Shown piece by piece: positions 9,100 to 64,000 of a stretch of 64,000 bases of DNA. The number at the start of each line of letters is the position of its first letter. Position 1 is the stretch's first letter. The stretch spans positions 9,772 to 73,771 of the forward strand of contig JABDMD010000005.1 of the NCBI GenBank assembly GCA_013001685.1, in the 5' to 3' direction. The position numbers were made by a program, and so were the translations under genes. This DNA is from Gammaproteobacteria bacterium. GTDB taxonomy: Bacteria > Pseudomonadota > Gammaproteobacteria > UBA4575. The notes below the pieces were generated by a model. It searched no databases. It was not told the origin of the DNA and saw nothing but the letters and a program-made list of their open reading frames with translations.

Positions 9100-9130
9100 T
9101 ATTTCCGCTTTTGGCCAATAGCAGTCATTA
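9100..9130. repeat. Palindromic repeat copy A (ttccgcttttggccaatagcagtcatt)
   Basis: Matches the family consensus GTCCGCTTTTGGCCAAAAGCGGAC and shares the 3' flank tcattNNtaagt with copy B. Confidence 0.7.
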
Positions 9131-9408: not shown

Positions 9409-9612
9409 ATGCAAAAAATTGATAAAGCTAATTCTTATATTTTAGATTTTCGAGAAAAAGAAGATAGGCGATCTTTTGGGCCGTCACCACAATTTCCCGT
9501 CTTCGATGATGCATGCACATTAGTAATTAAAGATCGGCGCTTTATACCTGATCGACGCATTGCGAATATCCAGGTCAGAGGGCATTTTTTACATATCAAA
9601 AGAAGTTACTAA
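9409..9612 (+). CDS. Small hypothetical protein (67 aa)
   Basis: An ORF lying alone in a 1.1-kb intergenic region. A degenerate copy of the palindromic repeat lies 31 bp after its stop, the same ORF-then-repeat arrangement seen in the 58-64 kb island. Confidence 0.2.
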   Translation: MQKIDKANSYILDFREKEDRRSFGPSPQFPVFDDACTLVIKDRRFIPDRRIANIQVRGHFLHIKRSY

Positions 9613-9642
9613 CAATACATTTCATAATTCTTTATATGTATA

Positions 9643-9672
9643 TGTCCGCTTTGGTTCGTTAGCAAACATTAT
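9643..9672. repeat. Degenerate palindromic repeat copy (gtccgctttggttcgttagcaaaca)
   Basis: The left arm and centre match the family. The right arm is mutated (GG to AA). Confidence 0.45.
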
Positions 9673-34352: not shown

Positions 34353-35252
34353 ATGAGTGTAACGATAACAGCAACCCGCAGCCTAGCAGCTGATCTTGTT
34401 GAAATCTGCAAGCCTCGCATAGCATTACTTGTTCTAGTAACCACATTCGCCGGGATGTGGCTAGCAGCCAGTACAACATTAGAATTTGATCTCATTCTGT
34501 TCACTCTATTAGGTACTGGCCTTGCTTCGGCTGCAAGTGGTGCATTCAACAATTATGTTGACCGTGAAGTAGATAAGCTCATGGCGCGCACGAGAATGCG
34601 CGCACTACCCTCTGCTCGACTACATCCTCAGCAAGCACTATGGCTTGGTGTGATGTTAAGTTTATGGTCATTCGCGATACTTTTTTATTTGGTTAATCCA
34701 TTAACTGCAATCCTTGTTCAGGCTACAACTTTTTCCTATGTAGTTATTTACACCATTTGGTTAAAACGCAGTTCTTCTTTATGCACTGAAATTGGCGGCA
34801 TAGCAGGCGCAATGCCGCCCGTTATTGGTTGGGCTGCTGTGACAAATGAAATTGGTTGGCCCGCACTAATGATGTTTTTAATTATGTTTATCTGGCAACC
34901 CCCGCATTTTTGGGCACTAGCTTTATTACGTAAAGACGAATATCGCCAAGCAAAGTTACCCATGTTACCCGTCACACATGGCGACAAAGCAACTAAAACC
35001 CGCATGTTGCTTTATACCGTCGCTTTAATACCAACTAGTTTAGCAATGTATTGGCTACAACTAGTAGGCCCCACTTATTTAGTTTTAGCTTCGATTCTTG
35101 GTATTACTTATTTAGTGTTAACTATAGATTTTGCACGCAAGCCGATCACGCAAAAAAGCTCAAAAAAACTATTCGGCTTTTCAATTTTATATTTACTAGG
35201 TTTGTTTACTTTGATTTTTATTGACTGTCAGTGTGGGACTGCTGTCTCATGA
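34353..35252 (+). CDS. cyoE: Heme O synthase (protoheme IX farnesyltransferase), copy 1
   Basis: UbiA-family motifs (NNYVDREVDKLMARTRMRALP). Confidence 0.9.
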   Translation: MSVTITATRSLAADLVEICKPRIALLVLVTTFAGMWLAASTTLEFDLILFTLLGTGLASAASGAFNNYVDREVDKLMARTRMRALPSARLHPQQALWLGVMLSLWSFAILFYLVNPLTAILVQATTFSYVVIYTIWLKRSSSLCTEIGGIAGAMPPVIGWAAVTNEIGWPALMMFLIMFIWQPPHFWALALLRKDEYRQAKLPMLPVTHGDKATKTRMLLYTVALIPTSLAMYWLQLVGPTYLVLASILGITYLVLTIDFARKPITQKSSKKLFGFSILYLLGLFTLIFIDCQCGTAVS

Positions 35253-42673: not shown

Positions 42674-43576
42674 TTGATTTTGAATGCAACCATTTCAGCG
42701 GCTCGCACCCAAGCAAGTGATTTATTTGAGATAAGCAAACCACGCATTGCTTTATTAGTCTTGCTTACTACTTTTACCGGCATGTGGTTAGCTGGTGGTG
42801 GTTATGTGCCATTAGATTTAGTTATTTATACACTCATTGGCACAGGTTTAGCCTCTGCCTCAAGTGGCGCGTTAAACAATTACGTAGATCGTGAGGTTGA
42901 TAAACTCATGGCACGTACACGTAACCGTGCGTTACCAACGTCAAGGTTACATCCACAACAAGCTCTATGGCTTGGTGGCCTATTAAGTATTTCTTCATTC
43001 GCTATTTTATTTTATTTAGTAAACCCATTAACCGCATACTTAGCATTAGGCACTACTTTTTTCTATGTAGTGATTTATACCATCTGGTTAAAACGCACTT
43101 CACCACTGTGCACAGAAATTGGTGGCGTCGCGGGAGCATTACCACCGGTAATCGGTTGGGCGGCTGTTACCAACGATATAAGTTGGCAAGCCATGGTCAT
43201 GTTTTTAATTATGTTTATTTGGCAACCACCACACTTTTGGGCGTTGGCACTACTACGTGCTGATGAGTATCGGCGCGCCAATTTACCCATGCTACCGGTT
43301 GTTAGTGGCATGGAAGTTACCAAATTCAGAATGCTGCTATATACCATCGTGCTAATTCCAGTTAGCACTACCATGTATTGGTTTAAGCTAGCAGGCCCTA
43401 TTTACCTGATTGCAGCACTAGTATTAGGTATTATCTATTTAGTTATCACCATAGATTTTGCACGCAAGCCAATCACTCACCAAAGTACAAAACGTTTATT
43501 TGGTTATTCGATTATTTATCTATGCGGCTTATTTATTTTTATCTTCGCTGACTGTCAATGCAGTGGTGCTTTATAG
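42674..43576 (+). CDS. cyoE: Heme O synthase, copy 2 (paralogue of 34353-35252)
   Basis: Same UbiA motifs (NNYVDREVDKLMARTRNRALP). About two-thirds identical to copy 1. Confidence 0.9.
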   Translation: MILNATISAARTQASDLFEISKPRIALLVLLTTFTGMWLAGGGYVPLDLVIYTLIGTGLASASSGALNNYVDREVDKLMARTRNRALPTSRLHPQQALWLGGLLSISSFAILFYLVNPLTAYLALGTTFFYVVIYTIWLKRTSPLCTEIGGVAGALPPVIGWAAVTNDISWQAMVMFLIMFIWQPPHFWALALLRADEYRRANLPMLPVVSGMEVTKFRMLLYTIVLIPVSTTMYWFKLAGPIYLIAALVLGIIYLVITIDFARKPITHQSTKRLFGYSIIYLCGLFIFIFADCQCSGAL

Positions 43577-51327: not shown

Positions 51328-54207
51328 TTACTGTACAAATGCGGCAACACCAAGTGAATTCATACATTCGAGCAATTCGTCGTCGTCATAAGGTTTAGTG
51401 ATATATGCAGATATTCCGATGCGTTCTGCTTCTTTCACATGTTTATCTGACGATTTTGAAGTAATCATTATAATTGGTATAGATGCCGTTTCATTGTTAG
51501 ACCGTAGATGATTAGAAAGCTCCAAACCATTCATTCTTGGCATTTCTAAATCAGTTAAAACAACACTTGGTGTCTGAAGTTGAATCTGGTTTATAGCCTC
51601 TACTCCGTCTTTTGCTGTAAACACAGCAAAACCAAGATCCTTCATAAATTGCTCGAGAGATTTACGTGTACTTATTGAGTCTTCCACAATTAGAGCAAGT
51701 GGAAGATCCTCTTGTAATTTTTCTAATTTTTCACTTTCAATGTATGTCCTATCAGACATATTTGAATTTTTTAATAACTCAACAATATCAATTACCGTTG
51801 TAACACTGCCATCACCCAGTATTGTTGAACCAAGTAGTCCCAATATTTTTGGAATAAACTTACTTAATGGCTTAGTAACAATATCTCTAGTATCAAATAT
51901 TTCATCTATCGTAACCGCAATTTTTTTATTTAGATCATCATTAATTAGCAATGTTACTTTTTGTTGCTCAAACGAATTATCCGCTGTTTTCGCTAGTAAA
52001 AATTGCAAATCAAATACTGGATATCTACGCTGCATATACTCAAAATACATCTTTCCAGAATCTGAAATAAAATCACCAGCACCAGCATACAAGATTTCAT
52101 CAACCCCTCTGTTTGATAACGCAACAGTAATATCCGCGCATCGCACTATGAGTGCATGCACTGAATTAATAGTAGTGGGTATTATTACTTCAACTCTAAC
52201 ACCATTATCTTTATTGGTATCTATAGCTACAGACCCTTTCATTTCAAGTACTTTTGTATGAACAGCAGCCAATCCAACACCTCGCCCAGACAATTGAGAT
52301 ACTTTGTCCTTAGTTGAAAAACCATGCTCAAGAATAATTTGAATTGCACGGTCATTAGTAAGTTTTTCATCTGCGTGTAAATATTCTTTTGCGATTGCTT
52401 TTGATTTAATAAGATTAAAATCAAGGCCACCACCATCGTCCTGACAAACAACACGAATAAGACCTCCTTCTTTTTTGAAACTGAGTTGTACTCTACCTTC
52501 AGAACTCTTTTTAAACTTTAATCTTTGCTCAGGCGTTTCTATCCCATGATCAACCGCATTCCGAATTATGTGCATTAATGGATCAACGAGCTGATGAATA
52601 AATTCACTATCAATAAGAGTATCTTCACCTGAAATTTCTAAACTAACGCGCTTGCCTGATTGCTTGCACGCCTGCCTTAGTGCACGTCTTAATCGCGGCA
52701 CAATACTCTGCACTGGTATCATACGAATTCGTGAAACTGCAGTTTGATTTTCATGCAAATTTCGTAATTGACTTAAGGACAACCTTTCAAGCTTGAATAG
52801 TGATTCTTCAATTTCACTTGAATATTCAACCGAATCATCTGAGCTTTCCATTAATTGATTCGTTAACGTATGCAATTCACTAAACTGCTCCATTTCTAAA
52901 GAATCAAATTCACTATCTTTAGAAATACTTTGCATAGAAAATGAAAAACCACGTACTCCAATCAAGCTTTCCAATTCTTGAGAAAGCATTTTAATTTTTT
53001 TGTTACTTGAACTTAAGTGCTGAATAGATGATTGAAGATTAAAAACTAACTCTTTAATTTGCTCATTAGATATGATGTTTTCACCTGCGCGCTTTAATAA
53101 GTCATCTGCCAAACTAACTGGAATTCGCAGAAATGGGTCTGCTGTAGTTTCTGCATGCCTTATATTAAGATCTTTTTTCTGGCTAGACAGAACTTGCTTT
53201 GATATATCATGTGAGCTTGGAGTGATTTTATTTTCTTTACTCTCGAGTTGTCTAATTACGCCAGAGCTGTCTATCTTATTAGCCCAATCTAAAATTTCCT
53301 GGAGTATTAATTCAGATTGCTCAGGATATGGCCCAAGATCTTCTAAATATTCTGACATTTCCTCTAAACAATCTGCAGCATTTTGAATTGCACTATGGAG
53401 TGATTCTGATGGTTTCGTCTTAGCTTTTAATAATGCCGCAAATATGTCCTCAAGGTGGTGCGTCAGACTTACAATCCCTTGAATCCCTACAGTATTTCCA
53501 GCACCTTTAAGCGTGTGTGTAGTACGGCCAGCAATCTCAAGCTGCTTAAGAAAATCATCACTTTGTAAACTTTGTACTGCTCTTGATAATTCTTCTGTCT
53601 GCCTAGGTAAATCAAGCATTAAGCTATTAAATAAATCCGAATTAATTTCTTCAGATATTTTAAGACTTACAAGCTCTGGAGTAGCTTTACTTATATGCTC
53701 TGGTGTTTCGCCATGATCAATTTCAATTTTAGAAATTAGAAATAATGACTCTAGTTTATCTAGTTCATGCTTATCTAATCTGACAGGCCAATAATTCTGA
53801 TCAAGATAGTCTAAAATGGATTGTATACACTCAGAATTGTATGGTGCCAATAAATAAGTATGAATAACATCAGGCCAATACAGTATTTTTGACCGTAATG
53901 AAATAAAATCTTTGAGTTGATTTTCCTGAATATGTTGAAGATTTTTTCGTATACTTAAACAAAAATAATGCAGCCCTCGCAATCCAATCATTTCTGCTGC
54001 AGACCCAATCCTACTGGTATGAAAAATCTGTAAGTCTATAATATCTTCTAATTGTTTATCATCCATCCCTCGCTTATCAAGCTCAGAGAACAACTCTGCT
54101 TGCAGTTCGAGTAAATCAGAAACTTCGCTTTTAATTAAATCAATTAACTCTTGTTGCTCGCTCGTGAGCTCACTCAATGACGGATTCATATCAGTATTTA
54201 TTTGCAT
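51328..54207 (-). CDS. ChpA-like hybrid CheA histidine kinase (Hpt - dimerisation/HATPase - CheW-like - C-terminal receiver)
   Basis: Hpt motif HTLKGAGNTVG, HATPase (DDGGGLD, GRGVGL), a CheW-like domain and a C-terminal REC (LIVEDSISTRK...DLEMPRMNG...KP). Confidence 0.85.
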   Translation of the reverse strand: MQINTDMNPSLSELTSEQQELIDLIKSEVSDLLELQAELFSELDKRGMDDKQLEDIIDLQIFHTSRIGSAAEMIGLRGLHYFCLSIRKNLQHIQENQLKDFISLRSKILYWPDVIHTYLLAPYNSECIQSILDYLDQNYWPVRLDKHELDKLESLFLISKIEIDHGETPEHISKATPELVSLKISEEINSDLFNSLMLDLPRQTEELSRAVQSLQSDDFLKQLEIAGRTTHTLKGAGNTVGIQGIVSLTHHLEDIFAALLKAKTKPSESLHSAIQNAADCLEEMSEYLEDLGPYPEQSELILQEILDWANKIDSSGVIRQLESKENKITPSSHDISKQVLSSQKKDLNIRHAETTADPFLRIPVSLADDLLKRAGENIISNEQIKELVFNLQSSIQHLSSSNKKIKMLSQELESLIGVRGFSFSMQSISKDSEFDSLEMEQFSELHTLTNQLMESSDDSVEYSSEIEESLFKLERLSLSQLRNLHENQTAVSRIRMIPVQSIVPRLRRALRQACKQSGKRVSLEISGEDTLIDSEFIHQLVDPLMHIIRNAVDHGIETPEQRLKFKKSSEGRVQLSFKKEGGLIRVVCQDDGGGLDFNLIKSKAIAKEYLHADEKLTNDRAIQIILEHGFSTKDKVSQLSGRGVGLAAVHTKVLEMKGSVAIDTNKDNGVRVEVIIPTTINSVHALIVRCADITVALSNRGVDEILYAGAGDFISDSGKMYFEYMQRRYPVFDLQFLLAKTADNSFEQQKVTLLINDDLNKKIAVTIDEIFDTRDIVTKPLSKFIPKILGLLGSTILGDGSVTTVIDIVELLKNSNMSDRTYIESEKLEKLQEDLPLALIVEDSISTRKSLEQFMKDLGFAVFTAKDGVEAINQIQLQTPSVVLTDLEMPRMNGLELSNHLRSNNETASIPIIMITSKSSDKHVKEAERIGISAYITKPYDDDELLECMNSLGVAAFVQ

Positions 54208-54254
54208 TAAATAGGCTACATATTCGCATTGAAATATATATCCATATGAATAAT

Positions 54255-56552
54255 CTATGCGCTCTCTAGCTCCGCGAGTTTGTCACGAATTACAGTGCTT
54301 TTACTGCTAATTTTAGAAGTAGTAAGACCCTTAACACCTTTGTTCTCATCCAATTGTGATTTAGTTTGTTTTTGCTGCTCCTGCTGAATCGCAGGGAGCT
54401 TAAAGATACCAACAGTTGTCAGTAACATATTTGAGTACCTAACTAAGTTGTTGGCATTTGTCATTTGCTGATGCAAATGCTCATCTGTTTTTCGTGTACT
54501 CTCTACAATCTCGTTAGATTTTTCTACTAACTGCAAATTTTCTTGTGCTTGTGCTTTTGAACTCTCAGTAATTTGAATTACAGCCTTAACAAGATCCTCA
54601 GTGGACTCTTTTGTTTGTTTCATGGCGTCACCGGCTTGTTCAGCGAGCGTAGTGCCTTCTGCCACTTGACTAATGACAGTATTCATTGCAGTTGCTGTGT
54701 CTTTTGTTTCGATACGAATATTACTAACTAATGAGTCTATTTCTGTTGTTGCTTCTCGCGCACTCTCAGCTAAGCGCTGAACTTCATCAGCAACTACTGC
54801 AAATCCACGACCAGCCTCACCTGCTGAAGCAGCATGCATACTGGCGTTCAACGCCAATATATGCGTACGCTCTGCAATACTATTAATTAAATTAACCACA
54901 CCCGTGATCTCTTGTGACCGCTCACCCAATCTTTTAATACGCTTCTCGGTTTCTTTAATAGTATCGCGAATGCTATTAATTCCTTCTACAGAGCGGTTAA
55001 CAGTATCCAATGCTGTTTGTGTGTTATTCAGGGCATTATCTGCGCGTTTATTAGCATCTATCGCATCCCATGAAATTTTACTCATTGCTTCGGAAGATTC
55101 TTTAAGCTCTTGCATAATATTTTCTGCTTGATGCCGTTCTTTTTCCGCAACAGCCATTACAAACTTAGATTGACGCTGTACGCGATTAGATTCAACCACT
55201 ACCCGTACTGAAATTTCTTTTACATCACTTAAAGCAGTAGCTGTTTCTTTAGTTAGCAGATTTAATGAGTCCCCTAATGCACCTGTTACATCCTCAAAAA
55301 TTGGAGCTTTAATCGTAAAGTCTTTTTTACTTAACTGAGCTACAGAATTCAGTAAAGATATTACTGAATCATTCAACTGCTCATTATTTTTTTCTGTAAC
55401 TGAAAGTTGTGTTACTTTTTCATCTAGCAGTTTATCGAATGCGCTCGATAACTCGCCCAACTCATCTTTTCGATTTAATTCTGTTCTTACTTCCAAGTTA
55501 CCTTCGTTTACATCATGAATTGCGTTTACAAGTGAATTAATAGGTTTTGTTATGGTATAACCAAACAAATACAACAAAAATGAAATCAGACCTGCTATCG
55601 CTATTAAGGATAAAAGCACAACCCAGGTAACTGCGTTAGTTGTTTTTTCTTGTGTAGATTGATTTTGCAAAATGCTCAATACTGAAGACTGCCCCATCTC
55701 ATCAAACATCGGGCCAAGCATGAAATCATACAATTCCGTGTATTCATTTGCATTGCGCTTATTATCAACAATATCATCGATTGTGCTAATATAATTAGCC
55801 ATATAGTTTTCTATGATTGGCTTATCATTATCAGATATGAAATCAGAGCCACTTAATATTGCATCAAATTTTTGATATTGATGTTTTAAATCTTCAAATG
55901 ATTCAGTCAAATCTATTGATTGCAATATATGTTTTTCATGGGCTCTAATTTTTGCAAGTACTGTAAATAAATTTGAGTTAGTCGCATTCCCTATTCCACT
56001 TTCAATATGTCCAAGAAGTAAGTTAGCTTTTTGACGCAACCCTTCAGCATCAGTAAAACCTACCAATTTATTAAACTTCACAATATCTGAAAAGGATGCT
56101 TTGTAATCATTTACTACAGCAGAGGCCTGAGCTACCAATTGTGATGAGTACTCAATGGGTAAAGCGACATCACCAATAACTATTTCGTCAGCTGCAATTG
56201 AATCAATCTCAACACTCAAAGCGCGAAGTTGCTCCATATTTTCTTCTAGTAACTGCACATGCTTTGAATGCTCATCAAGAGGAGCATTGTTGTAGGTCTG
56301 GCCAGTAGATGCAGAAATACTTAATAGAAAATCTTTCTCATACCGCCTTACTTTGAAGTAGTTTTTTTGTGCATCACTTACTAGTTGTCCGTATTTGATA
56401 AATAAATTAGATCTCTCAGTTGCCTCACGCTCATTTTTAATTACAAACCAATACGTCAAGGCAATTGCAATAAAACCTAAAGTAACGGCTATAAATAGAA
56501 TAGCAAGTTTATTTGTAATCTTAATGTCTAATAACTTATTCAAATAAGCCAT
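54255..56552 (-). CDS. Methyl-accepting chemotaxis protein with a large periplasmic sensor domain
   Basis: Two TM segments flank a periplasmic domain of about 280 aa. HAMP region. Highly conserved MCP signalling domain (ILALNASMHAASAGEAGRGFAVVADEVQRLAE). Confidence 0.85.
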   Translation of the reverse strand: MAYLNKLLDIKITNKLAILFIAVTLGFIAIALTYWFVIKNEREATERSNLFIKYGQLVSDAQKNYFKVRRYEKDFLLSISASTGQTYNNAPLDEHSKHVQLLEENMEQLRALSVEIDSIAADEIVIGDVALPIEYSSQLVAQASAVVNDYKASFSDIVKFNKLVGFTDAEGLRQKANLLLGHIESGIGNATNSNLFTVLAKIRAHEKHILQSIDLTESFEDLKHQYQKFDAILSGSDFISDNDKPIIENYMANYISTIDDIVDNKRNANEYTELYDFMLGPMFDEMGQSSVLSILQNQSTQEKTTNAVTWVVLLSLIAIAGLISFLLYLFGYTITKPINSLVNAIHDVNEGNLEVRTELNRKDELGELSSAFDKLLDEKVTQLSVTEKNNEQLNDSVISLLNSVAQLSKKDFTIKAPIFEDVTGALGDSLNLLTKETATALSDVKEISVRVVVESNRVQRQSKFVMAVAEKERHQAENIMQELKESSEAMSKISWDAIDANKRADNALNNTQTALDTVNRSVEGINSIRDTIKETEKRIKRLGERSQEITGVVNLINSIAERTHILALNASMHAASAGEAGRGFAVVADEVQRLAESAREATTEIDSLVSNIRIETKDTATAMNTVISQVAEGTTLAEQAGDAMKQTKESTEDLVKAVIQITESSKAQAQENLQLVEKSNEIVESTRKTDEHLHQQMTNANNLVRYSNMLLTTVGIFKLPAIQQEQQKQTKSQLDENKGVKGLTTSKISSKSTVIRDKLAELESA

Positions 56553-56587
56553 ATTTTTTTCCTTATTAAATTAGTTCAGCTGTTTAA

Positions 56588-57172
56588 CTAATTTGTAAAT
56601 GATTCAATAAAAAAAGGGAAATCAATGCACACCCATATTTTTCCGCCTTTCTTATATGCATGAGTAACAAAAGGTTGTACTATTTTTGGTAGCTTGGAGA
56701 AATTTTTTAAACGCTCTTTTTTCTTAAAATTAATAGGTGAAGGTAACTTAGTAAGTTGTATTCCTATAGCATTTTCATCTTTATCTAAAACTAGCGTTTT
56801 ATATTTACCTGCTTCAATTACGCTTTTTTCACCACTAATTATTTGCTCAAAATCAATCACAGGCACAATATCGCCACGGTGGTTACAGGCCCCAAGTAAC
56901 CAATTTGGTGAAAGTGGAATAGGATAAATGAGGTTGTCTTCAAGGATTTCGGAAGATAGCGATGCAGATAACAGCATATTTAAATTTCCAATAATAAATC
57001 CAAAATAACGTTCATCCGTAGAACTTTTATTTGTATCTGGAGTAAACTGATATTCTGCTTCGAGCTTCTTGATTAATTCTGCATGCTTTTCTAGCCAGCC
57101 AGTACGGGCACTTTTACTGTCAACTTCAGATGCAATCGACAAAACTGACAGGTCATCAGACTCTTTCATCAT
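56588..57172 (-). CDS. CheW-like coupling protein
   Basis: CheW domain with an N-terminal extension. Overlaps the upstream cheY-like gene by 4 bp. Confidence 0.75.
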   Translation of the reverse strand: MMKESDDLSVLSIASEVDSKSARTGWLEKHAELIKKLEAEYQFTPDTNKSSTDERYFGFIIGNLNMLLSASLSSEILEDNLIYPIPLSPNWLLGACNHRGDIVPVIDFEQIISGEKSVIEAGKYKTLVLDKDENAIGIQLTKLPSPINFKKKERLKNFSKLPKIVQPFVTHAYKKGGKIWVCIDFPFFIESFTN

Positions 57173-57531
57173 ATATATTTGTTTATTTCTGCAACAATTT
57201 GATCTGATGTGAAAGGTTTAGCAATTAATGCCTTACCACCTTGTAGCTCTGCCCAAACATAATCTGCTTTTTGATTTTTCGTTGTTACAAAAATAATAGG
57301 AATATTTTTTGTTTTTTTATCTGCAATAATTTCGCGACACGCCTGATAACCATCTTTTTTATCCATAATTATATCCATAAAAATTAAATCTGGACGCATA
57401 CTGTTAGCTTTTTCTATAGCCTCCTCGCCAGAAATAGCTGTTATTGCCTGATAACCTGCATCTAAAACAATCGTTTTTAGCTTTTCTAGATCTGGTTTAG
57501 AATCATCAACAATTAGAATTTTATTGTTCAT
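57169..57531 (-). CDS. CheY-like response regulator (PilG/PilH class)
   Basis: ILIVDDSKPD...DLIFMDIIMDKKDGYQ...VTTKNQKADYVWAELQGGKALIAKP, the same class as the pilH homologue at 1079-1444. Confidence 0.85.
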   Translation of the reverse strand: MNNKILIVDDSKPDLEKLKTIVLDAGYQAITAISGEEAIEKANSMRPDLIFMDIIMDKKDGYQACREIIADKKTKNIPIIFVTTKNQKADYVWAELQGGKALIAKPFTSDQIVAEINKYI

Positions 57532-58206
57532 GGCATTTACAAACCTGAGTAAAAAATTTTAAACATATCGAGAATATCAAGTTACTCATTGACCTTGTCA
57601 TAATGACTAATTTTTATGTATAACGATCTTCCTTGGTCGCATATTTACTAAGATAATTTACGGTTACATTAAATTATGTTCCGCAATGTCTAATTTATAA
57701 TTGGTCGAACAATTTCTTTCGCTTATAACCTATCAAGCAAAAACTGTTCAAATTACGCATTTTTTTATTTTGTATGAGTTATGGGATACGCGCAGATTAG
57801 TACATACAGAGGAGACTTTGACGGTATTCACATTTTTTGTCAATAATAGTGCGGTTAATTCCAGCGGAATAACAAAATTTACATCCAGCATTTAAGACAA
57901 AGTTTGAATATCTAAAATAAGTATCTGCACCCAACAAATTACACTTATAGAAATTGCTAATAGACTTGTTTTAAATTTTTGATTTACATGCAAACCACAG
58001 GGACAACTAAACAGTACATTACAATGAAAAGTTAATTTATTGTCTAAGATATATATTTAACTGTATACAAATAAGGGCACATAAGGATGATCTTGAAGCT
58101 AATACATTCCTGAATCTTGCTGGCTATGTTTCATTCCATTCTAAATAGAATAAAACTTGGATTACGAACGCTCCAAGTTACCCTCAATCAGTTTATTTTA
58201 AATGAC

Positions 58207-58578
58207 TCACTTATATGTTCTTTTATTAGGAATCACATTTCTAACACCACCTTTGGGATCAGCAACATCTCCCGCATATCTAGGAATTAAATGAATGTGT
58301 GTGTGGGGCACTGATTGGCCAGCAACTTTGCTTACATTAATTCCAATATTATAAGAATCTGGCTTATGCTCATTATCAACCATTTGCTTGGCACGATGCA
58401 CGTTATCCCATAACTCTGCTATTTCTTCCTGAGTGCAATCAAAATAGTTCGGAACGTGCCTATTAGGAATGATGAGTAGGTGGCCGGGAGATGCTGGATA
58501 CTTATCTTGACTTATGAAAGTCAGCTCACCCTGATAGACAAGATCTACTCTTCTACAAAAAAGACAATCGGAAGACAT
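58207..58578 (-). CDS. HIT family hydrolase
   Basis: HIT motif HTHIHLIP. The start is at the internal Met MSSDCLFCRRV. The upstream 78 codons of the track ORF run through intergenic and repeat sequence. Confidence 0.7.
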   Translation of the reverse strand: MSSDCLFCRRVDLVYQGELTFISQDKYPASPGHLLIIPNRHVPNYFDCTQEEIAELWDNVHRAKQMVDNEHKPDSYNIGINVSKVAGQSVPHTHIHLIPRYAGDVADPKGGVRNVIPNKRTYK

Positions 58579-58848
58579 AAAAAGTAATATAAAATTTTTG
58601 AATAGTGGCCAGACGATTAAACTTGCCAGAAGCAAATAAGGACAACCGTAAGCTAGCCTGAAGGGTAAACTACATTGACGTAGTGAGCAATCAAACCGTC
58701 TACACGAGGATATGTATTCCTCGATCCAGTACCTGATAGCATCACTAGTAACTGTGAGTTGCAAATAAGTCGATAGCTTAAATTCTGTTTTCCACCTTAT
58801 TTCCACCAACTATTTGCAAGGTAAGTCATCAATCTTCTAGGCTTCAAA

Positions 58849-58880
58849 TGTCCGCTTTCGGCCAATAGCAGTCATTCATT
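58849..58880. repeat. Palindromic repeat copy B
   Basis: tgtccgctttcggccaatagcagtcattcatt. Begins 24 bp 3' of the ferritin-like gene. Confidence 0.75.
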
Positions 58881-58903
58881 AAGTATTAGATTATCTAAGC
58901 CAA

Positions 58904-59362
58904 TTAGCTTTTATAAGCAGCTATATCGCCAGGCTCACGAATCATTTTGTCTACTTCACTATGGTGCATCTCTTCACTAGCAATCATTTGTCGAGCATAT
59001 TCTTCTAGTACTACAGAGTGACCTTCAACTAAAGTCAATAATTTCTTGTATTTCTCCAATGCTGCACCTTCATGCTCTAACGATTCTCGCATAATATCTT
59101 TAATATCATGTTTATGCGTCTCTAATAATGGGCCGATTGCAAGTGAAGGGTGTTCCCCTAAGTGAGTGATCATTTCACCTGCTTGTCGTGCGTGCATCAA
59201 AGACTCGTCTGCTTGTGCATTCATCCACGAGACTATGGGGATACGGTTATAGCCAAATATCATCAATGCATAGTGGGTATAATGCACCACCCCTGCAAGT
59301 TCCGTCTCAAGAATTTCATTGAGTAGTGCTACTACGGGGGACTTATCAAAGTTCTCTTTCAT
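58904..59362 (-). CDS. Ferritin-like four-helix-bundle protein (bacterioferritin family-like)
   Basis: VVALLNEILETELAGVVHYTHYALM...LMHARQAGEMITHLGE pattern of the Bfr/Dps ferroxidase-centre helices. Confidence 0.55.
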   Translation of the reverse strand: MKENFDKSPVVALLNEILETELAGVVHYTHYALMIFGYNRIPIVSWMNAQADESLMHARQAGEMITHLGEHPSLAIGPLLETHKHDIKDIMRESLEHEGAALEKYKKLLTLVEGHSVVLEEYARQMIASEEMHHSEVDKMIREPGDIAAYKS

Positions 59363-59480
59363 TTTTCGTACTCTCATTTGTTTTGTTTGAGTTATTATAT
59401 TTTACTAAACCAGTCTTGCATAAACTACGCCCTATAATTGTTTAAAAGTTTCTAGCCTTTAAAAATCATCAATGTGGTTA

Positions 59481-59511
59481 TGTCCGCTTTCGGCCAATAG
59501 CGGTCAATCAA
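59481..59511. repeat. Palindromic repeat copy C
   Basis: tgtccgctttcggccaatagcggtcaatcaa. Begins 31 bp 3' of the DUF427 gene. Confidence 0.75.
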
Positions 59512-59541
59512 CATTTGATTATTTAATTTGGCTTAATACGA

Positions 59542-59823
59542 TTATTCAATTACCTCGACACCACGCCAGAAGGCAATATAATTTTCGATATTCTTTGCTT
59601 TGTCTTTTGCTTCTGGGTAATACCAGGCAGCATCTTCGTTTTCTTTTCCGTCTACATTAATCGTGTAGTAGCTCGCTTGCCCTTTCCAATAACATGTAGT
59701 GTGTTTTCTACTTTTTTCCAAAAATTCATAGTTAACCGACTCAGGAGGAAAATAGTAGAAAGTATCAATTACAATCGTCTCATCACTCTCTGCAATGACT
59801 TTATTGTTCCAAATTGCTTTCAT
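59542..59823 (-). CDS. DUF427 domain protein
   Basis: 93 aa (KVIAESDETIVIDTFYYFPPESV...CYWKGQASYY) matches the DUF427 pattern. Confidence 0.65.
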   Translation of the reverse strand: MKAIWNNKVIAESDETIVIDTFYYFPPESVNYEFLEKSRKHTTCYWKGQASYYTINVDGKENEDAAWYYPEAKDKAKNIENYIAFWRGVEVIE

Positions 59824-59848
59824 AATTTATATCTACTAAATTTTATAG

Positions 59849-59876
59849 CTCTCGACCAATAGCGGCCATTCAATAA
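59849..59876. repeat. Palindromic repeat copy D (left arm partly deleted)
   Basis: gctctcgaccaatagcggccattcaata. Confidence 0.55.
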
Positions 59877-59952
59877 AAACAAATTAGACTACTACCGAAG
59901 ATGTAATAAAAGGCAATCTGCTCCACTAGAAGCTTTGTAAAAATTGTCGTTG

Positions 59953-60192
59953 CTAATCTTCTTTTTCTAATTCTTTTCTATATTCTTCTTCTCTCTCTAT
60001 ATCAATTTTTGATTTTACTATGTAAATAACCACTGCTATCCAAGCAATAAACCATAAATAAAATTTCGTTGGATCAACTGTAGGTTTTTTATAATCCAAC
60101 AAAATGAAAATCATGGCAACTGCACTAAATGCTATAAGTGTTACTACATGGATTTTTATTACATAACCGATAATGCTCCATCTAATTTTCAT
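59953..60192 (-). CDS. Small hypothetical membrane protein (79 aa)
   Basis: Two predicted TM helices followed by a charged C-terminus. Confidence 0.3.
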   Translation of the reverse strand: MKIRWSIIGYVIKIHVVTLIAFSAVAMIFILLDYKKPTVDPTKFYLWFIAWIAVVIYIVKSKIDIEREEEYRKELEKED

Positions 60193-60320
60193 TTAGAGAT
60201 TATTCTCATATCTGACGCCTCTATGTGTTAATTGACTACTTCACAATAAAACCAGTGGATTTATCTATAAGCATTTCATCATTTTACTGAACACACTAAT
60301 AGCAGGCTGAAATCATGCGA

Positions 60321-60352
60321 GTGTCCACTTTGGGTCGTAAGCGGTCATTTAT
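60321..60352. repeat. Palindromic repeat copy E
   Basis: gtgtccactttgggtcgtaagcggtcatttat. Overlaps the stop codon of the CBS gene. Confidence 0.65.
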
Positions 60353-60768
60353 TAATTTTTTGGGAATTTTGTTTTTATATATTCACCGAAAAAGCGACAC
60401 GAATCTATAAATGTAAAAACACCGGCCAATTTTTGATGCTTGGTAATCACAGCAGCTCCTATGTGTTTATCTGCCATTGTTAACAAAACATTTTCAAGCG
60501 GTTCATTAATGTCAACAATATACGGTTTAGATATATAAACATGCCGAACCTCGAGGTTTTCATTAGCCCCTCTATCGAGCATTAACTTTTGTATTGCATC
60601 AATATCTTTTTGTGTGATTATTCCAAAAATCTCTTCACCACTCATCACGGGAAGGTGGTGGATATGGTGCTCTTCCATCATTTCTTTTGCTTTAGTTAAT
60701 GATGTTTCCAGTTTTACCGAGTACGGAAACGGAGTCATTGCAGCAGTAAGAGTTGGTATCTTTTTCAT
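60352..60768 (-). CDS. CBS domain pair protein
   Basis: 138 aa with two CBS motifs (HHLPVMSGEEIFGIITQKDI, GAAVITKHQKLAGVFTFIDS). Confidence 0.7.
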   Translation of the reverse strand: MKKIPTLTAAMTPFPYSVKLETSLTKAKEMMEEHHIHHLPVMSGEEIFGIITQKDIDAIQKLMLDRGANENLEVRHVYISKPYIVDINEPLENVLLTMADKHIGAAVITKHQKLAGVFTFIDSCRFFGEYIKTKFPKN

Positions 60769-60844
60769 TTGTTAAACTTTAATTAGTCTGTATTATTCAA
60801 TAAGTTTATATTCAATAATAATAGATTCTTAACTCTATTGTGAA

Positions 60845-60916
60845 TGTCCGCTTTTCGTAAATTAAAAAAAATAATAATTATCTTTAAATATGACCGCTTT
60901 TGGTCGAAAGTGGACA
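60845..60916. repeat. Composite site F: half-site tgtccgcttttcg, a 33-bp A/T-only spacer, then full copy tgaccgcttttggtcgaaagtggaca
   Basis: The half-site and the full palindrome are read directly from the sequence at 60845-60857 and 60891-60916. Confidence 0.6.
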
Positions 60917-61563
60917 TTTGGTTGTAATCACAAATCAAACTATCAGAATGTCTATTGTGAGAAATATTAAACATCATGTAAAGCAAGGCCGACACATTTA
61001 AAGAAATGGACGACCTTACGGTGGGAGGAGTTGGAAGTTGTTTAATGCTTTTATATTAATTAAATATTGCGAGAGATAATTTCCTCTTTTGTCTAGTTTA
61101 TCAAGTGTATGACTTGGTTAATTATGTAAACACTATTAGCATCGCACCAAGTGTTACGGAAATAGCTACAGTTAATATGCCCACCTCTTTCCATAAAGTG
61201 CATTCAAAGCATTGATCTTTGTTCATAGTGTCATTATCCTTTTTAATAGTTAAGTAAATTATAGAGTTCATATATAAATATTATTCATAATTGAAATTCT
61301 AGGTTATAAAATTTATTGGAAGTATATTATGTGCTTCCATGCTACTTATCAATTCGTATTAATTTGAATTATAGTTCGATTTTACCGAGCTTTTGGTTTG
61401 CGCTTTCGTATAAAAAACGAATTATTATCTGATGATAGATATACGGAAATTTCGTTTTGAATATATAGCAAATGAGAATATTTCTTATTTATGTTTAGAG
61501 CATGAAATACAGCACTTTATATTAGAGTATCCAGAATTTGCAGCTAGACGAGGATGATTGGAA

Positions 61564-61596
61564 CGTCCGCTATTGGCGAAAGCAGGCATTCATCAA
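61564..61596. repeat. Palindromic repeat copy G (degenerate)
   Basis: cgtccgctattggcgaaagcaggcattcatcaa. Confidence 0.5.
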
Positions 61597-61873
61597 CCCT
61601 GAGCAAAATCTATGGGATTACTAATTATGTCAAATACAAAAGCATATTATTTCAACTAACAATTCCAAGTTCAGCTTAATTCCTAATGTAATAATCAGTG
61701 AGTTATTTAGTCTATCTATATACTTAAGTGAACAGTTTCTCAGCATCAATTTCGACTTGCCTGTATAAAATAAGATTGAAGCGATAAATTATCTTTAAAC
61801 GCAGCTCATCACACTAGTATCTTAGTGTGGGCAACATCGTCCTAAATAATTCGCGTTGCTAAAGGAGTAGCAC

Positions 61874-62503
61874 ATGGAGGTCTTTTTCAAATTAGTCACA
61901 GAACTTATTCAGACTACTAAAGCTTTTTGGATGGTGCTATTAGGAGCCGGTATTGCAATATTTGCTAATAATAGAACAACAAAACTCGCTAATGATGGTT
62001 TTTTACGAGAAAGAAAAAAACAACGATATGATGAAACCAACAGAGAAAAGATTAACGCGCTAAAACAACTATATGAATTAATCCAGGAAGCCACCTCACT
62101 TTACAGTGTATATATGGCTAGAGTGAAATTTAATATAACACGCAAACAAAGAAATTCGTTGTCCGATGATGCAGAAAATATAAGGCTAAAGATAATAGAA
62201 AAATTTAGCAAAGCCTCTATGTTGGTGCAGTTTTATGCTATTGAAAAAAGTATAGCCTTTGATCATTATCAGCGCGCGGTGATAAAAGGGCTTAGATTAT
62301 GGGATGCATACCAATTAGCTGAAGTTAAAAACGATAATTATCTACATAGATTAAGCAAAGCCCACTTAGAATTAATCAACAAAAATCGTAGCAAGGTCAT
62401 GCAGTATGAAGCGGACCTAGCATTGCGTATAGGAAGTTCGGGAAGAAAAATTATTAATCAAAGTAACCTCTACGAGGATGTTTTAGAAGAACTTGATTTG
62501 TAA
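61874..62503 (+). CDS. Hypothetical protein (209 aa)
   Basis: ORF with an N-terminal TM segment. A repeat copy lies 39 bp after its stop. Confidence 0.4.
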   Translation: MEVFFKLVTELIQTTKAFWMVLLGAGIAIFANNRTTKLANDGFLRERKKQRYDETNREKINALKQLYELIQEATSLYSVYMARVKFNITRKQRNSLSDDAENIRLKIIEKFSKASMLVQFYAIEKSIAFDHYQRAVIKGLRLWDAYQLAEVKNDNYLHRLSKAHLELINKNRSKVMQYEADLALRIGSSGRKIINQSNLYEDVLEELDL

Positions 62504-62542
62504 TCTGTTAGATCATACTTATTCTTACATATATCTAATGTC

Positions 62543-62568
62543 CGCTATTAGCCGAAAGCAGACAAAAA
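62543..62568. repeat. Palindromic repeat copy H
   Basis: tgtccgctattagccgaaagcagaca. Lies 39 bp after the stop of 61874-62503 and 11 bp before the next start. Confidence 0.65.
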
Positions 62569-62579
62569 TTCGCACTTAA

Positions 62580-62894
62580 ATGATTCACATAATTTTACAT
62601 TTTTTGGTTCCAGCACTAGTAGCTCGAATTTTCTTTCGAAGGCACTGGGGAAACGCATGTTTTATAATGGTCGCGACAATGCTCGTTGATCTCGATCACT
62701 TAATTGCAAGCCCCATATATAATCCTGATTGCTGTAGCATTGGTTTTCACCCGCTACATCAACCATGGTTCGTAGTATTGTATTTTATACTTTGTTTTGT
62801 ACCTAAGACCCGGCTTATAGGTCTCGGGTTGTCTATTCATATGAGTCTAGATGCTATTAATTGCCAAGTGACAAATGGTGTGTGGATAAATTAA
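62580..62894 (+). CDS. Small hypothetical protein, DUF6122-like
   Basis: 104 aa (MIHIILHFLVPALVARIFF...DLDHL) resembles the DUF6122 family. Confidence 0.45.
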   Translation: MIHIILHFLVPALVARIFFRRHWGNACFIMVATMLVDLDHLIASPIYNPDCCSIGFHPLHQPWFVVLYFILCFVPKTRLIGLGLSIHMSLDAINCQVTNGVWIN

Positions 62895-62935
62895 AATTTA
62901 ATTAACAAGAGCACATAAAAATGCAAGTAGTTATT

Positions 62936-62961
62936 GTCCGCTTATGGCCAAAAGCAGACAC
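62936..62961. repeat. Palindromic repeat copy I (near-perfect 24-bp palindrome)
   Basis: tgtccgcttatggccaaaagcagaca. Confidence 0.75.
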
Positions 62962-63021
62962 TATGTTGGAACTAAGTTAGATTTATCGTTGAATTTACAA
63001 TCACTGCTCAACGTAGGCACT

Positions 63022-63183
63022 TATGAATACAGAGACTCAGCTATTAGTGTATTTAATATTATTACTTTTCGTTGATACTATATTGCCATTACCTATTACT
63101 GCGGCAATTTTACTATATGTGGTGTTAAAAAGACCCGTATGGTTTAGAGAGCTGTACCATCAAGTATATAAATCGTCCACATA
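63022..63183 (+). CDS. Small hydrophobic protein (53 aa), not in the ORF track
   Basis: ATG at 63022 and TAA at 63181-63183. One TM helix. A repeat copy begins 10 bp after the stop. Confidence 0.25.
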
Positions 63184-63193
63184 ATACACATAC

Positions 63194-63220
63194 AGTGACC
63201 GCTAACGACCCAAAGCGGAT
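63194..63220. repeat. Palindromic repeat copy J (divergent centre)
   Basis: gtgaccgctaacgacccaaagcggata. Confidence 0.5.
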
Positions 63221-63428
63221 ATTCAACGACTAAGCTTATCTGCTATGTCTCGCTTGAATGAAAAATAAAATAAAATTGGGTTACTTTGGCAGGACTGTTT
63301 AGCTCTTCATCGATTGTCAGAATCATTTATTCTATTCATATGTAAAACTTCATATGTTTCTCTTGAACTAGCTATGCGCTTACTCATTTTACAACGAGCG
63401 CATATATATATTAGGCGATGACAAGGAA

Positions 63429-63686
63429 GTGTTCATGAAAGCTGATCTTATAAAATATAAAGACTATACAATTCTGTTTAATGCCCATGAGATAAAGTCT
63501 GGGTCATTTTGTCCTGTCGCAATGCTTTTCAAGTCGGGGAAGAAAGCAGTTACGTTAGATATTAAAAGGACGTTTGCAGAAAGAGGTCAAGCGCTCTCAT
63601 TTGCATTGAATGCTGCGGAAGCGACTGTAGATGCAAAGCTTAAAGAAATGAAACCATATTTTGCTTCGGTTATAAGTGGGTGTTGA
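63429..63686 (+). CDS. Hypothetical protein (85 aa)
   Basis: ORF followed 43 bp later by a repeat copy. Confidence 0.35.
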   Translation: MFMKADLIKYKDYTILFNAHEIKSGSFCPVAMLFKSGKKAVTLDIKRTFAERGQALSFALNAAEATVDAKLKEMKPYFASVISGC

Positions 63687-63728
63687 ATCATTTGCATTCC
63701 ATGATGTAACCAATTCGCTCAAACTTTG

Positions 63729-63755
63729 AATGACCGCTTTTGGCCATAAGCGGAC
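63729..63755. repeat. Palindromic repeat copy K (near-perfect palindrome)
   Basis: atgaccgcttttggccataagcggaca. Confidence 0.75.
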
Positions 63756-63874
63756 AATTGTATCTTAGTAAAATGATAGTCAGTCTGTTTTTCGGAATGA
63801 AATACAGAATTGCTATTAAATATACTTTGCTATTCTTATAGATTAAGAGTACGTTGATTTTAGATTAGATCTTC

Positions 63875-64000
63875 CTAACCCGTTTCTTCCAGAGTTTCAT
63901 TTCTCCGCCAGTCATCGGCAATCACCTCTAATTCCTGATTTTTATGACGCAGTGTCATGAGAGCACTTAAATTTGTGCAAATAGATTGAACACCGGGAAT
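63875..64000 (-). CDS. C-terminal 41 codons of a gene entering from beyond the window end
   Basis: Reverse-strand frame open from 64000 to TAG at 63875-63877 (...ALMTLRHKNQELEVIADDWRRNETLEETG*). Confidence 0.2.
   Translation of the reverse strand: MPGVQSICTNLSALMTLRHKNQELEVIADDWRRNETLEETG

Follow-up and report, generated by a model that had tools for sequence, protein, structure and literature searches.

Palindromic repeats as candidate joints of a strain-variable array of small-gene cassettes in a gammaproteobacterial genome

We analyzed a 64,000-nucleotide stretch of DNA (the window) from a gammaproteobacterium of the GTDB lineage UBA4575 (assembly GCA_013001685.1, contig JABDMD010000005.1, positions 9,772 to 73,771), in which an initial annotation had drawn attention to short palindromic repeats placed after small genes. 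These repeats form a real, polar family with two subtypes that is present in distant taxa and replicons. On balance, we favor the interpretation that this is a widespread, untagged family resembling repetitive extragenic palindromes (REPs), whose copies here probably serve as joints of a strain-variable array of small-gene cassettes, with crossovers inside the palindrome. In alignments with related strains, the sites coincide with every cassette breakpoint that we examined, and a site-gene-site unit carrying a DUF427 gene appears in two genomes.

A polar palindrome family with two subtypes

Direct reading of the window, a repeat finder and mismatch scans together gave 13 copies of the palindrome. 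Eleven are full copies, starting at 9103, 9644, 58850, 59482, 60323, 60892, 61565, 62540, 62936, 63197, and 63732; the others are a decayed copy at 59849 and a half site at 60845. The initial count of at least 13 copies, most of them at 58.8 to 63.8 kb, is thus confirmed, with coordinates agreeing to within a few bases. A 24-mer consensus allowing up to three mismatches matched three times in the window and not at all in 100 shuffles. A looser two-arm pattern matched 14 times, against a shuffle mean of 2.8, recovering the 11 full copies and three matches inside genes that are probably due to chance. Eleven of the 13 copies lie within 58.85 to 63.76 kb, about 5 kb of the window, and none lies in the roughly 50 kb of core genes. 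This island was described as AT-rich, and its GC content is indeed 32 to 37%, compared with roughly 38 to 42% across most of the window.

All copies but the one at 9103 (12 of 13) are clearly intergenic. A position 0 to 77 bp past a stop codon had been claimed for every copy in the island; nine copies do lie 5 to 80 nucleotides (nt) 3' of a stop codon, the exceptions being 9103 (280 nt) and the central pair at 60845 and 60892. When each is read along its upstream gene, nearly all copies have the same polarity, TGAATG(A/T)CCGCT-ATTGGCCG-AAAGCGGACAT. The asymmetric 3' extension GTCATTCA noted earlier is real and becomes, in this direction, the 5' flank TGAATG. Site polarity flips together with gene direction at 60.85 to 60.9 kb; because this occurs inside one 5-kb island, replication direction cannot account for it. 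Where a single consensus had been drawn, the arms are indeed common, but the centers fall into two subtypes, in gene sense CT-ATTGGCCG-AAAG (T1) and CT-(A/T)ACGACCC-AAAG (T2), the latter found at 60323, 63197, and 9644. The layout is 11-6-11, with two 11-bp inverted arms around an asymmetric center of 6 to 7 bp (ATGTCCGCTAT-TGGCCG-AAAGCGGACAT, 28 bp). No Rfam family matched the window at its gathering score, and nothing relevant appeared in the island at E values up to 10. No tRNA or tmRNA gene that might serve as an integration target was found in the window.

A 22-nt degenerate pattern searched in one genome per species returned at least 117 stretches, where about four matches are estimated by chance (L-numbers below label stretches compared with the window). 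The common motif, ATGTCCGCT(A/T)T-TGGCC(G/C)-AAAGCGGACAT, occurs in Alpha-, Beta-, Gamma-, and Zetaproteobacteria, Nitrospinaceae, enterobacterial plasmids, Escherichia coli, and prophages. Hosts among the matches listed include many Pseudolabrys and other Xanthobacteraceae, Maricaulaceae, Burkholderiales, Pseudomonas, Hahella, Salinicola, Stenotrophomonas, Thiotrichales, Woeseiaceae, Acidiferrobacterales, Mariprofundaceae, Nitrospinaceae, and two Bacteroidota bins. Bases outside the search pattern are conserved too (AT on the 5' side, ACAT(T) on the 3' side), giving a flank consensus of (G/A)AAT-GTCCGC...GCGGAC-ATT(C). A 32-mer search found close variants (GTCCGCTTTGTGCCAAAAGCGGAC) in 223 plasmids, mainly from Pantoea and Klebsiella; in pKpn23412-362 (L121), a site directly follows vapC and is adjoined by an ars operon. 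Close variants are also carried by 394 of 5,426 complete E. coli genomes (7%), in one to three places each, and by 13 viral contigs and four phage records. The two E. coli places examined are accessory DNA, namely, a prophage and a Klebsiella-like islet.

At the loci returned (at least 117), most sites are intergenic, with 64 in unidirectional, 36 in convergent, and 25 in divergent contexts and a median distance of 64 nt from the upstream stop versus 127 nt from the next start. Orientation follows the gene strand in co-directional contexts (53 versus 13; 8 versus 1 in low-GC loci alone). In 235 unique sites, Watson-Crick or wobble pairs occur at every stem position as often as expected if the columns varied independently. 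There is no compensatory covariation in the stem, indicating that the arms are conserved as sequence rather than as pairing. Among the common single changes in these sites, G-U pairs are more frequent on the sense strand (54 versus 15).

Strains closely related to the window, as well as further gammaproteobacterial MAGs (metagenome-assembled genomes) of low GC content, carry T1-T2 doublets of about 110 nt with a conserved 55-nt spacer (L085, L102, L030, L081, L126, and L128). The spacer, AGGTTGGAAT...TAAAAT (L128:10693-10747), is conserved across different MAGs (L085, L102, L030, and L081). Eight doublet-bearing loci were without an Rfam match. Similar doublets occur at high density in Pseudolabrys genomes, and many contigs of Pseudolabrys MAGs hold several copies. 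At L049, L051, L064, L088, L103, and about 30 further loci (Pseudolabrys-type, with one Burkholderiales bin), paralogues about 40% identical to one another and ending in ...ADEVIE stop 6 to 36 nt before a site or doublet; by eye, they look like substrate-binding proteins of ABC transporters. When translated, the repeats also give spurious open reading frames (ORFs) with motifs such as MSALGQKRT and FGPKADI.

Strain comparisons and the structure of the island

For comparison between strains, we used contigs encoding close relatives of a 209-residue island protein without an assigned function (gene at 61874..62503, plus strand). This narrow family has 17 relatives found, and its gene is the last one common to all compared strains. 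The set comprises four strains with flanking genes 96 to 99% identical to the window; L132 is the strain that matches window positions 51874 to 64000 at 99.5%. A second route to relatives in metagenome contigs, through the CheW gene, gave two loci only, both ending short of the array. All examined breakpoints of cassette gain, loss, or replacement fall inside a palindrome.

The 362-bp DUF427 cassette (59504..59865, minus strand; gene 59542-59823) is present in the window and L132 and missing from L126 and L128 to L130. In the window, it lies between a T1 site at 59480..59507 (minus), 36 nt past the DUF427 stop, and a decayed T1 site at 59847..59874 (minus; TGAATGGCCGCTATTGGTCGAGAGCTAT in gene sense), 80 nt past the stop of a gene for a predicted 79-residue membrane protein (59953..60192, minus). 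The arm of the decayed site that faces DUF427 is the one that has degenerated. L126 and L128 to L130 have one site between the ferritin gene and the 79-residue protein gene, and this site is a hybrid that joins the left part of window site 59482 to the right part and flank of 59849. The crossover is thereby bounded to 10 nt common to both sites, CCGCTATTGG (also given as CCAATAGCGG).

A larger replacement begins after the 209-residue protein gene. Homology of L132 with L126 and L128 stops inside the T1 site at 62538..62565 (plus), 36 nt past this gene, and homology with L128 resumes 5.7 kb farther on, at the site at L132:16385; the content between is entirely different. The window and L132 have DUF6122, 53-residue, 85-residue, RRM, DUF1611, and other genes there. 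L128 has bPH_5 and EF-hand genes, to which L126 adds DUF2934, 62-residue, 74-residue, GGDEF, and 153-residue genes. The window part of this strain-specific segment (62566..64000, plus; about 5.7 kb in all up to L132:16385) holds the DUF6122 gene (62580-62894) and ORFs of 53 (63023-63184) and 85 (63429-63686) residues, all on the plus strand. Each is followed by a plus-strand site: T1 at 62934..62961, 41 nt past the DUF6122 gene; T2 at 63195..63222 (GACCGCTAACGACCCAAAGCGGAT), 12 nt past the 53-residue ORF; and T1 at 63730..63757, 45 nt past the 85-residue ORF. Exact-protein look-ups found neither the 85-residue nor the DUF6122 protein on record.

Where the window has the site at 62538..62565, L126 and L128 have a T1-spacer-T2 doublet. 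The two strains differ by a module of about 1 kb (DUF2934 and 62-residue genes) lying between duplicated copies of the doublet in L126; these copies agree throughout the inner part and differ in their outer arms. At the EF-hand junction of L126 and L128, the left arm and center are the same and stay with the upstream gene; the right arm changes with the cassette downstream. As aligned, all five junctions appear compatible with a crossover in the 8-nt sequence CCGCTATT at the boundary of the left arm and the center.

The same unit is found in a different setting in OZ252002.1 (L149), where a DUF427 protein 82% identical to that of the window is encoded beside znuA-type genes. The DNA from site through gene to site is 85% identical between the two genomes; outside the sites it cannot be aligned, and the neighboring genes are unrelated. 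The arm that is decayed at 59849 in the window is intact in L149. This locus also encodes a phage-type integrase and a small terminase (L149:8244-10536) about 3 kb from its DUF427, glyoxalase, and 50-residue protein cassettes, which may represent a satellite or prophage inserted beside them.

Phages show comparable junctions. Two related prophages from IMG/VR contigs (L139 and L141) share a YedK-like gene and umuDC up to the site after umuC (L139:10388 and L141:12980) and then diverge, one into an HNH and ATPase gene pair, which may be a defense system, and the other into arsR-arsB. Further, in a GenBank entry from 2004 for the Z region of the P2-like phage P2-EC46 (AJ512680), two foreign ORFs ("morons") lie between repeats annotated as "left" and "right inverted repeats." The left repeat contains CAGTCCGCTATGTGCCAAGAGCGGACATTCC, which is the same palindrome, and the right repeat has a half site.

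We propose that an integrated unit would consist of the center and right arm of one site, the gene, and the left arm of the next site, and that units would be gained, lost, or replaced by recombination with the crossover within the palindrome. We infer that this exchange is site specific and that a sequence-specific enzyme catalyzes it in trans. The arms, conserved as sequence, and their 11-6-11 spacing would suit a tyrosine recombinase as its core site; simple sites of such enzymes, for example dif and loxP, have an asymmetric center in an 11-6-11 layout. Alternatively, an HUH nuclease might nick the hairpin loop, which would fit the same crossover window. The position of sites downstream of genes and their agreement with the gene strand may simply follow from cassette structure, and the transcribed hairpin may have some additional effect on the mRNA 3' end. 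An aside in the initial annotation, that the repeats might mark a novel cassette boundary, is thus its best-supported part, given the DUF427 hybrid site, the swap, and the shared site-gene-site unit. A stronger version, that this is a cassette-exchange system distinct from integrons and Xer/dif in which the 28-bp palindrome is the site of a trans-acting enzyme and units move between chromosomes, plasmids, and phages, is possible, and we hold it only tentatively. The island would then be a sedentary array of at least ten cassettes.

The island consists of two diverging arrays of small genes around an ORF-poor center of about 1.1 kb. The left array, on the minus strand, ends with a HIT-family gene (58207..58578), downstream of which no recognizable site was found. 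Next comes a T1 site (58848..58875, minus), 30 nt past the stop of a ferritin-like cassette gene (58904..59377, minus), followed by the DUF427 and 79-residue protein genes described above. A T2 site (60321..60348, minus; GACCGCTTACGACCCAAAGTGGAC in gene sense) lies 5 nt past the stop of a CBS-pair gene (60352..60768, minus), the first cassette gene of the left array. A half site (TGAATGTCCGCTTTTCG; 60843..60859) marks the inner end of this array and is followed by a 30-nt A+T-rich spacer. The first site of the right, plus-strand array is a T1-like copy at 60890..60917 (plus; ATGACCGCTTTTGGTCGAAAGTGGACAT). Beyond it, 60918..61873 holds only a 49-residue ORF (61122-61271, minus) and a 41-residue ORF (61432-61557, plus), 7 nt past which lies a T1 site with a center one base shorter (61563..61589, plus). 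The half site and A+T run at the start of the center might be the entry point of the array.

No ORF longer than 70 residues was seen at 60780-61870; the 49- and 41-residue ORFs are called as genes in other assemblies. The center is about 97% conserved among strains apart from a 45-bp indel. Metagenome contig L002, 98.5% identical in other respects, lacks this segment (60980-61024), which has no palindrome at its boundaries. A 69-kb MAG contig (L001; GCA_024638735.1, JAHEJS010000004.1) ends within the cassette array, at about window position 60010 to 60140, and other contigs of this lineage likewise end in or beside it; assembly is probably disrupted here by the repeats and by variation between strains.

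Outside the island, two sites bracket a 67-residue ORF without a Pfam match (9409..9612, plus), possibly a single cassette. The first is T1 (9101..9128, minus; TTCCGCTTTTGGCCAATAGCAGTC on the plus strand), 280 nt after a pyrK-like gene and upstream of the ORF; the second is T2-like (9642..9669, minus; GTTTGCTAACGAACCAAAGCGGAC on the minus strand), 31 nt past its stop, with a predicted folding energy of -8.6 kcal/mol (z = -3.7). The arrangement is the same in GCA_018676985.1, and no polymorphism of this pair was seen in the one other assembly found. Elsewhere in the window, a ppsA-like phosphoenolpyruvate (PEP) synthase gene has an in-frame TAA (27287-27289, minus) between ORFs 27287-28177 and 25823-27286; the gene may have become a pseudogene or been split, or the assembly may be wrong here. 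A pair of paralogous ORFs, each about 300 residues long (34353-35252 and 42674-43576), has near-identical N-terminal motifs; both resemble protoheme IX farnesyltransferase, and they sit on either side of a cytochrome oxidase cluster.

Search for an enzyme and competing explanations

We looked for an enzyme that could act on the sites. Up to 51.2 kb, the window has 52 ORFs that reach 120 residues, and inspection of the first 90 residues of each revealed no integrase or transposase; the ORFs of this part look like core genes (gshB, pyrB, pilT/U, metX, cox, fae, bipA, and a che cluster). Pfam scans of the island ORFs likewise showed no integrase or transposase, and no integrase was found in the 16.6 kb of L132 or in L126 and L128. 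When 145 site-adjoining ORFs were assigned to Pfam families, 144 different families came out. In regular-expression screens of 745 site-adjoining ORFs, no recombinase candidate recurred and no HUH motif was present. Two related MAGs have XerD at a single orthologous locus; apart from this, there was an integrase fragment, and two more ORFs were flagged among the viral loci. The xerD locus (L041:2122-3036 and L044:1118-2035, both gammaproteobacterial MAGs) holds the chromosomal gene, with a site 0.7 to 1.5 kb upstream, probably by coincidence. The check for a REP-associated tyrosine transposase (RAYT) suggested at the outset was made with phmmer, comparing E. coli RayT with all six-frame ORFs from about 150 loci and from the window, some 1 Mb of site-bearing DNA; no homologue appeared at E values up to 10.

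The lack of a recombinase candidate in the window ORFs checked, and of a recurrent one beside the sites, weighs against cassette joints, as do several other points. Pseudolabrys-type genomes carry the element dispersed and in high copy number, like ordinary REPs or REPINs (REP doublets forming hairpins). Recombination by short homology between repeats of 28 to 110 nt would leave the same scars. Only the DUF427 junction is tightly bounded, to 10 nt; each of the others, taken singly, allows a wide crossover interval, and pairwise comparisons cannot tell insertion from deletion. The conservation statistics are biased, as sites were gathered by a pattern and a profile built from it, so that conservation of the center is partly by construction. 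Finally, the position, orientation bias, and sense-strand G-U excess match what has been described for transcribed REPs (Di Nocera et al. 2013, PMC3733652).

Some of these points lead to the leading rival, in which the repeats are ordinary selfish REPs or REPINs, either propagated by a RAYT-type HUH transposase or no longer mobile, and cassette variation is incidental. The repeats would be tolerated 3' of genes, the hairpin modestly protecting mRNA 3' ends, and would merely offer short homology or hairpin-prone DNA to RecA, phage annealing proteins, or replication slippage. We regard this as unlikely, though it deserves serious consideration. The bias to 3' ends and to unidirectional and convergent contexts, the orientation with the gene strand, and the excess of sense-strand G-U pairs all speak for it, as do the high-copy, dispersed elements of Pseudolabrys MAGs. 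In single-stranded form, an entire doublet of about 110 nt makes a single long hairpin with bulges (-40.7 kcal/mol, z = -5.25). Super-families of REPs spanning phyla, and families without a dedicated transposase, have already been described (PMC3733652). The REP-like reading of the initial annotation accordingly stands as to form, position, and doublets, and falls short in that no RAYT was found in about 1 Mb of site-bearing DNA and neither a GTAG nor a CGTC tag is present.

Other evidence argues against ordinary REPs. In the window, the copies cluster in accessory DNA, with 11 of 13 packed into 5 kb and none among about 50 kb of core genes. Slippage and short homology explain deletions but not the arrival of new genes, and leave the DUF427 site-gene-site unit in a second genome unexplained. 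Further, the arms keep their sequence and show no compensatory change. Several window copies hardly fold at all; the RNA stems predicted for the copies are 5 to 10 bp long with mismatches, with energies between -4.5 and -9.5 kcal/mol and z scores between -0.1 and -3.7. A hairpin of 10 to 12 GC-rich base pairs, as first proposed, was therefore an overstatement, and a purely structural role in mRNA stabilization is unsupported.

Next in order, the palindromes could be operators of a conserved regulator, or noncanonical transcription stops, that travel with the accessory genes they control. An 11-6-11 palindrome with sequence-conserved arms is operator-like, and the substrate-binding paralogues keep the downstream site even at about 40% protein identity. 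In the doublets, the palindromes bracket a conserved spacer that reads TTGGAT-N17-TAAAAT, a sigma-70-promoter-like sequence directed into T2. This spacer was not flagged by a promoter scan, its -35 hexamer matching at three of six positions, and the idea of a promoter cassette therefore stays speculation. Nor do the sites behave as intrinsic terminators. The palindromes were not called in gene sense and have no T-tract, in line with the original remark that a U-tract is missing and at odds with its suggestion of a terminating hairpin. The scan flagged only the sites at 60894 and 60333, both on the plus strand and the latter antisense to its own gene, and terminator-like calls over 57.5 to 64 kb showed no excess (5 versus 3.4 expected). 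Sites are also closer to the upstream stop than to the next start, their decay in place (59849, 60845, and L132:13109) is unexpected for operators that are needed, and regulation leaves the hybrid sites at indel junctions unexplained. We consider this explanation improbable.

The island could also be read as a CALIN (a cluster of integron attC sites without an integrase), given its small, mostly co-oriented ORFs with an imperfect palindrome after each, the strain differences in cassette content, and the fact that doublets fold into a bulged hairpin about as large as attC. At 28 bp, single sites are shorter than the imperfect palindromes of attC (roughly 57 to 141 bp), and they lack the RYYYAAC and GTTRRRY core sites at their ends. 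No intI or attI was found, the array has two divergent halves, and the crossover lies in mid-palindrome rather than at the G|TT of an R' site. We judge this very unlikely and rejected it on site size and the missing core sites.

Least probable of all are abutted terminal inverted repeats of an insertion sequence (IS) or miniature inverted-repeat transposable element (MITE), a reading suggested by 11-bp inverted arms 6 bp apart, as in an IS-circle junction, and by MITE-sized doublets of about 110 nt, and rejected because solitary full palindromes sit among unrelated ordinary genes, the segments between sites being such genes at very different lengths, with no transposase recurring nearby.

If the palindromes are true recombination sites, they would provide a second, integrase-less route to arrays of small accessory genes in bacteria and phages. 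They could then explain the appearance of morons and small defense or stress genes at the same hotspots in unrelated replicons, and the 28-bp site would be a search key for such arrays in metagenomes. Populations polymorphic for single cassettes offer a natural system in which to seek excision circles and the enzyme. If they are plain REPs, they would still constitute an untagged REP family common to several classes, with repeats acting as breakpoints of gene turnover, and the breaks of MAG contigs inside the island would be explained as well.

Comparison with known systems

Like REPs, bacterial interspersed mosaic elements (BIMEs), and REPINs, the family consists of short imperfect extragenic palindromes, mostly 3' of ORFs, with two subtypes. 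As in REPINs and BIMEs, inverted-type doublets with a conserved linker form one long hairpin, and, as in REP super-families, members are common to distant phyla. Unlike REPs, they have no GTAG or CGTC head and no CCA tail, no RAYT was found in the site-bearing DNA searched, and the window copies sit in a variable island rather than being spread over core intergenic DNA. The arms are conserved by sequence rather than pairing, and the sites are breakpoints of gene-sized indels. Some CGTC families likewise lack a dedicated transposase (Di Nocera et al. 2013, PMC3733652). CGTC-tagged REPs have an unpaired CGTC or TGTC head, an 8- to 9-bp stem starting with AT, a loop of 4 to 5 nt (2 to 3 bp in many GTAG families), and a CCA tail (PMC3733652); judged by this family description, the palindrome is set apart by a TGTC within the stem, a center of 6 to 10 nt, and the tail ATT.

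The short palindromic repeats of Neisseria dRS3 arrays (neisserial intergenic mosaic elements, NIMEs) and "minimal mobile elements" also bound variable segments between conserved genes. Exchange of these segments is ascribed to transformation and homologous recombination. The neisserial sequence is different (ATTCCC-N8-GGGAAT, classed as CGTC-1; PMC3733652), and the arrays there hold noncoding repeat units.

With integron arrays and CALINs, the island shares small ORFs mostly of unassigned function, a palindrome after each, turnover between strains, hybrid junction sites, and the same cassette and site in different genomes. Unlike attC, where structure is conserved, the site is a simple 28-bp palindrome whose sequence is conserved across phyla. 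It lacks R'', L'', L', and R' boxes and AAC/GTT triplets; no AAC...GTT pair occurs at a constant distance, and the site flanks are TGAAT and ATT. No integrase or attI was found, and the array runs in two divergent halves.

The pdif modules of Acinetobacter, acted on by XerC and XerD, are likewise bounded by 28-bp 11-6-11 sites around small gene modules. They shuffle between replicons with the enzyme acting in trans, and no recombinase lies beside the cassettes here either. The dif consensus has a XerC arm resembling GGTGCGCATAA and the XerD arm TTATGTTAAAT; compared with it, the palindrome has no XerD arm and matches 5 of 10 positions in the XerC arm. Unlike pdif sites, those within one array are mostly direct rather than alternating, are chromosomal, and extend to several classes and a second phylum.

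The Z-region morons of P2-like coliphages (AJ512680) have the same palindrome in the left repeat, with two foreign ORFs bracketed. Unlike for the island, that entry annotates no multicassette array and no distribution beyond enterobacteria, its setting being enterobacterial phages and pathogens. A 2004 paper by Nilsson, Karlsson, and Haggard-Ljungquist (Mol Biol Evol 21:1) reportedly attributes, in its title, the insertion of morons in P2 phages to site-specific recombination. The papers citing it do not describe the repeat, the literature searched contained no follow-up or named enzyme for P2 moron insertion, and a full-text search with motif strings returned unrelated primers only. The array functions like an integron array or a set of pdif modules yet has none of the attC boxes, IntI, or Xer arms that define them. 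At the same time, the palindrome flanking P2 morons, annotated in 2004, is already on record, and the system is not categorically new.

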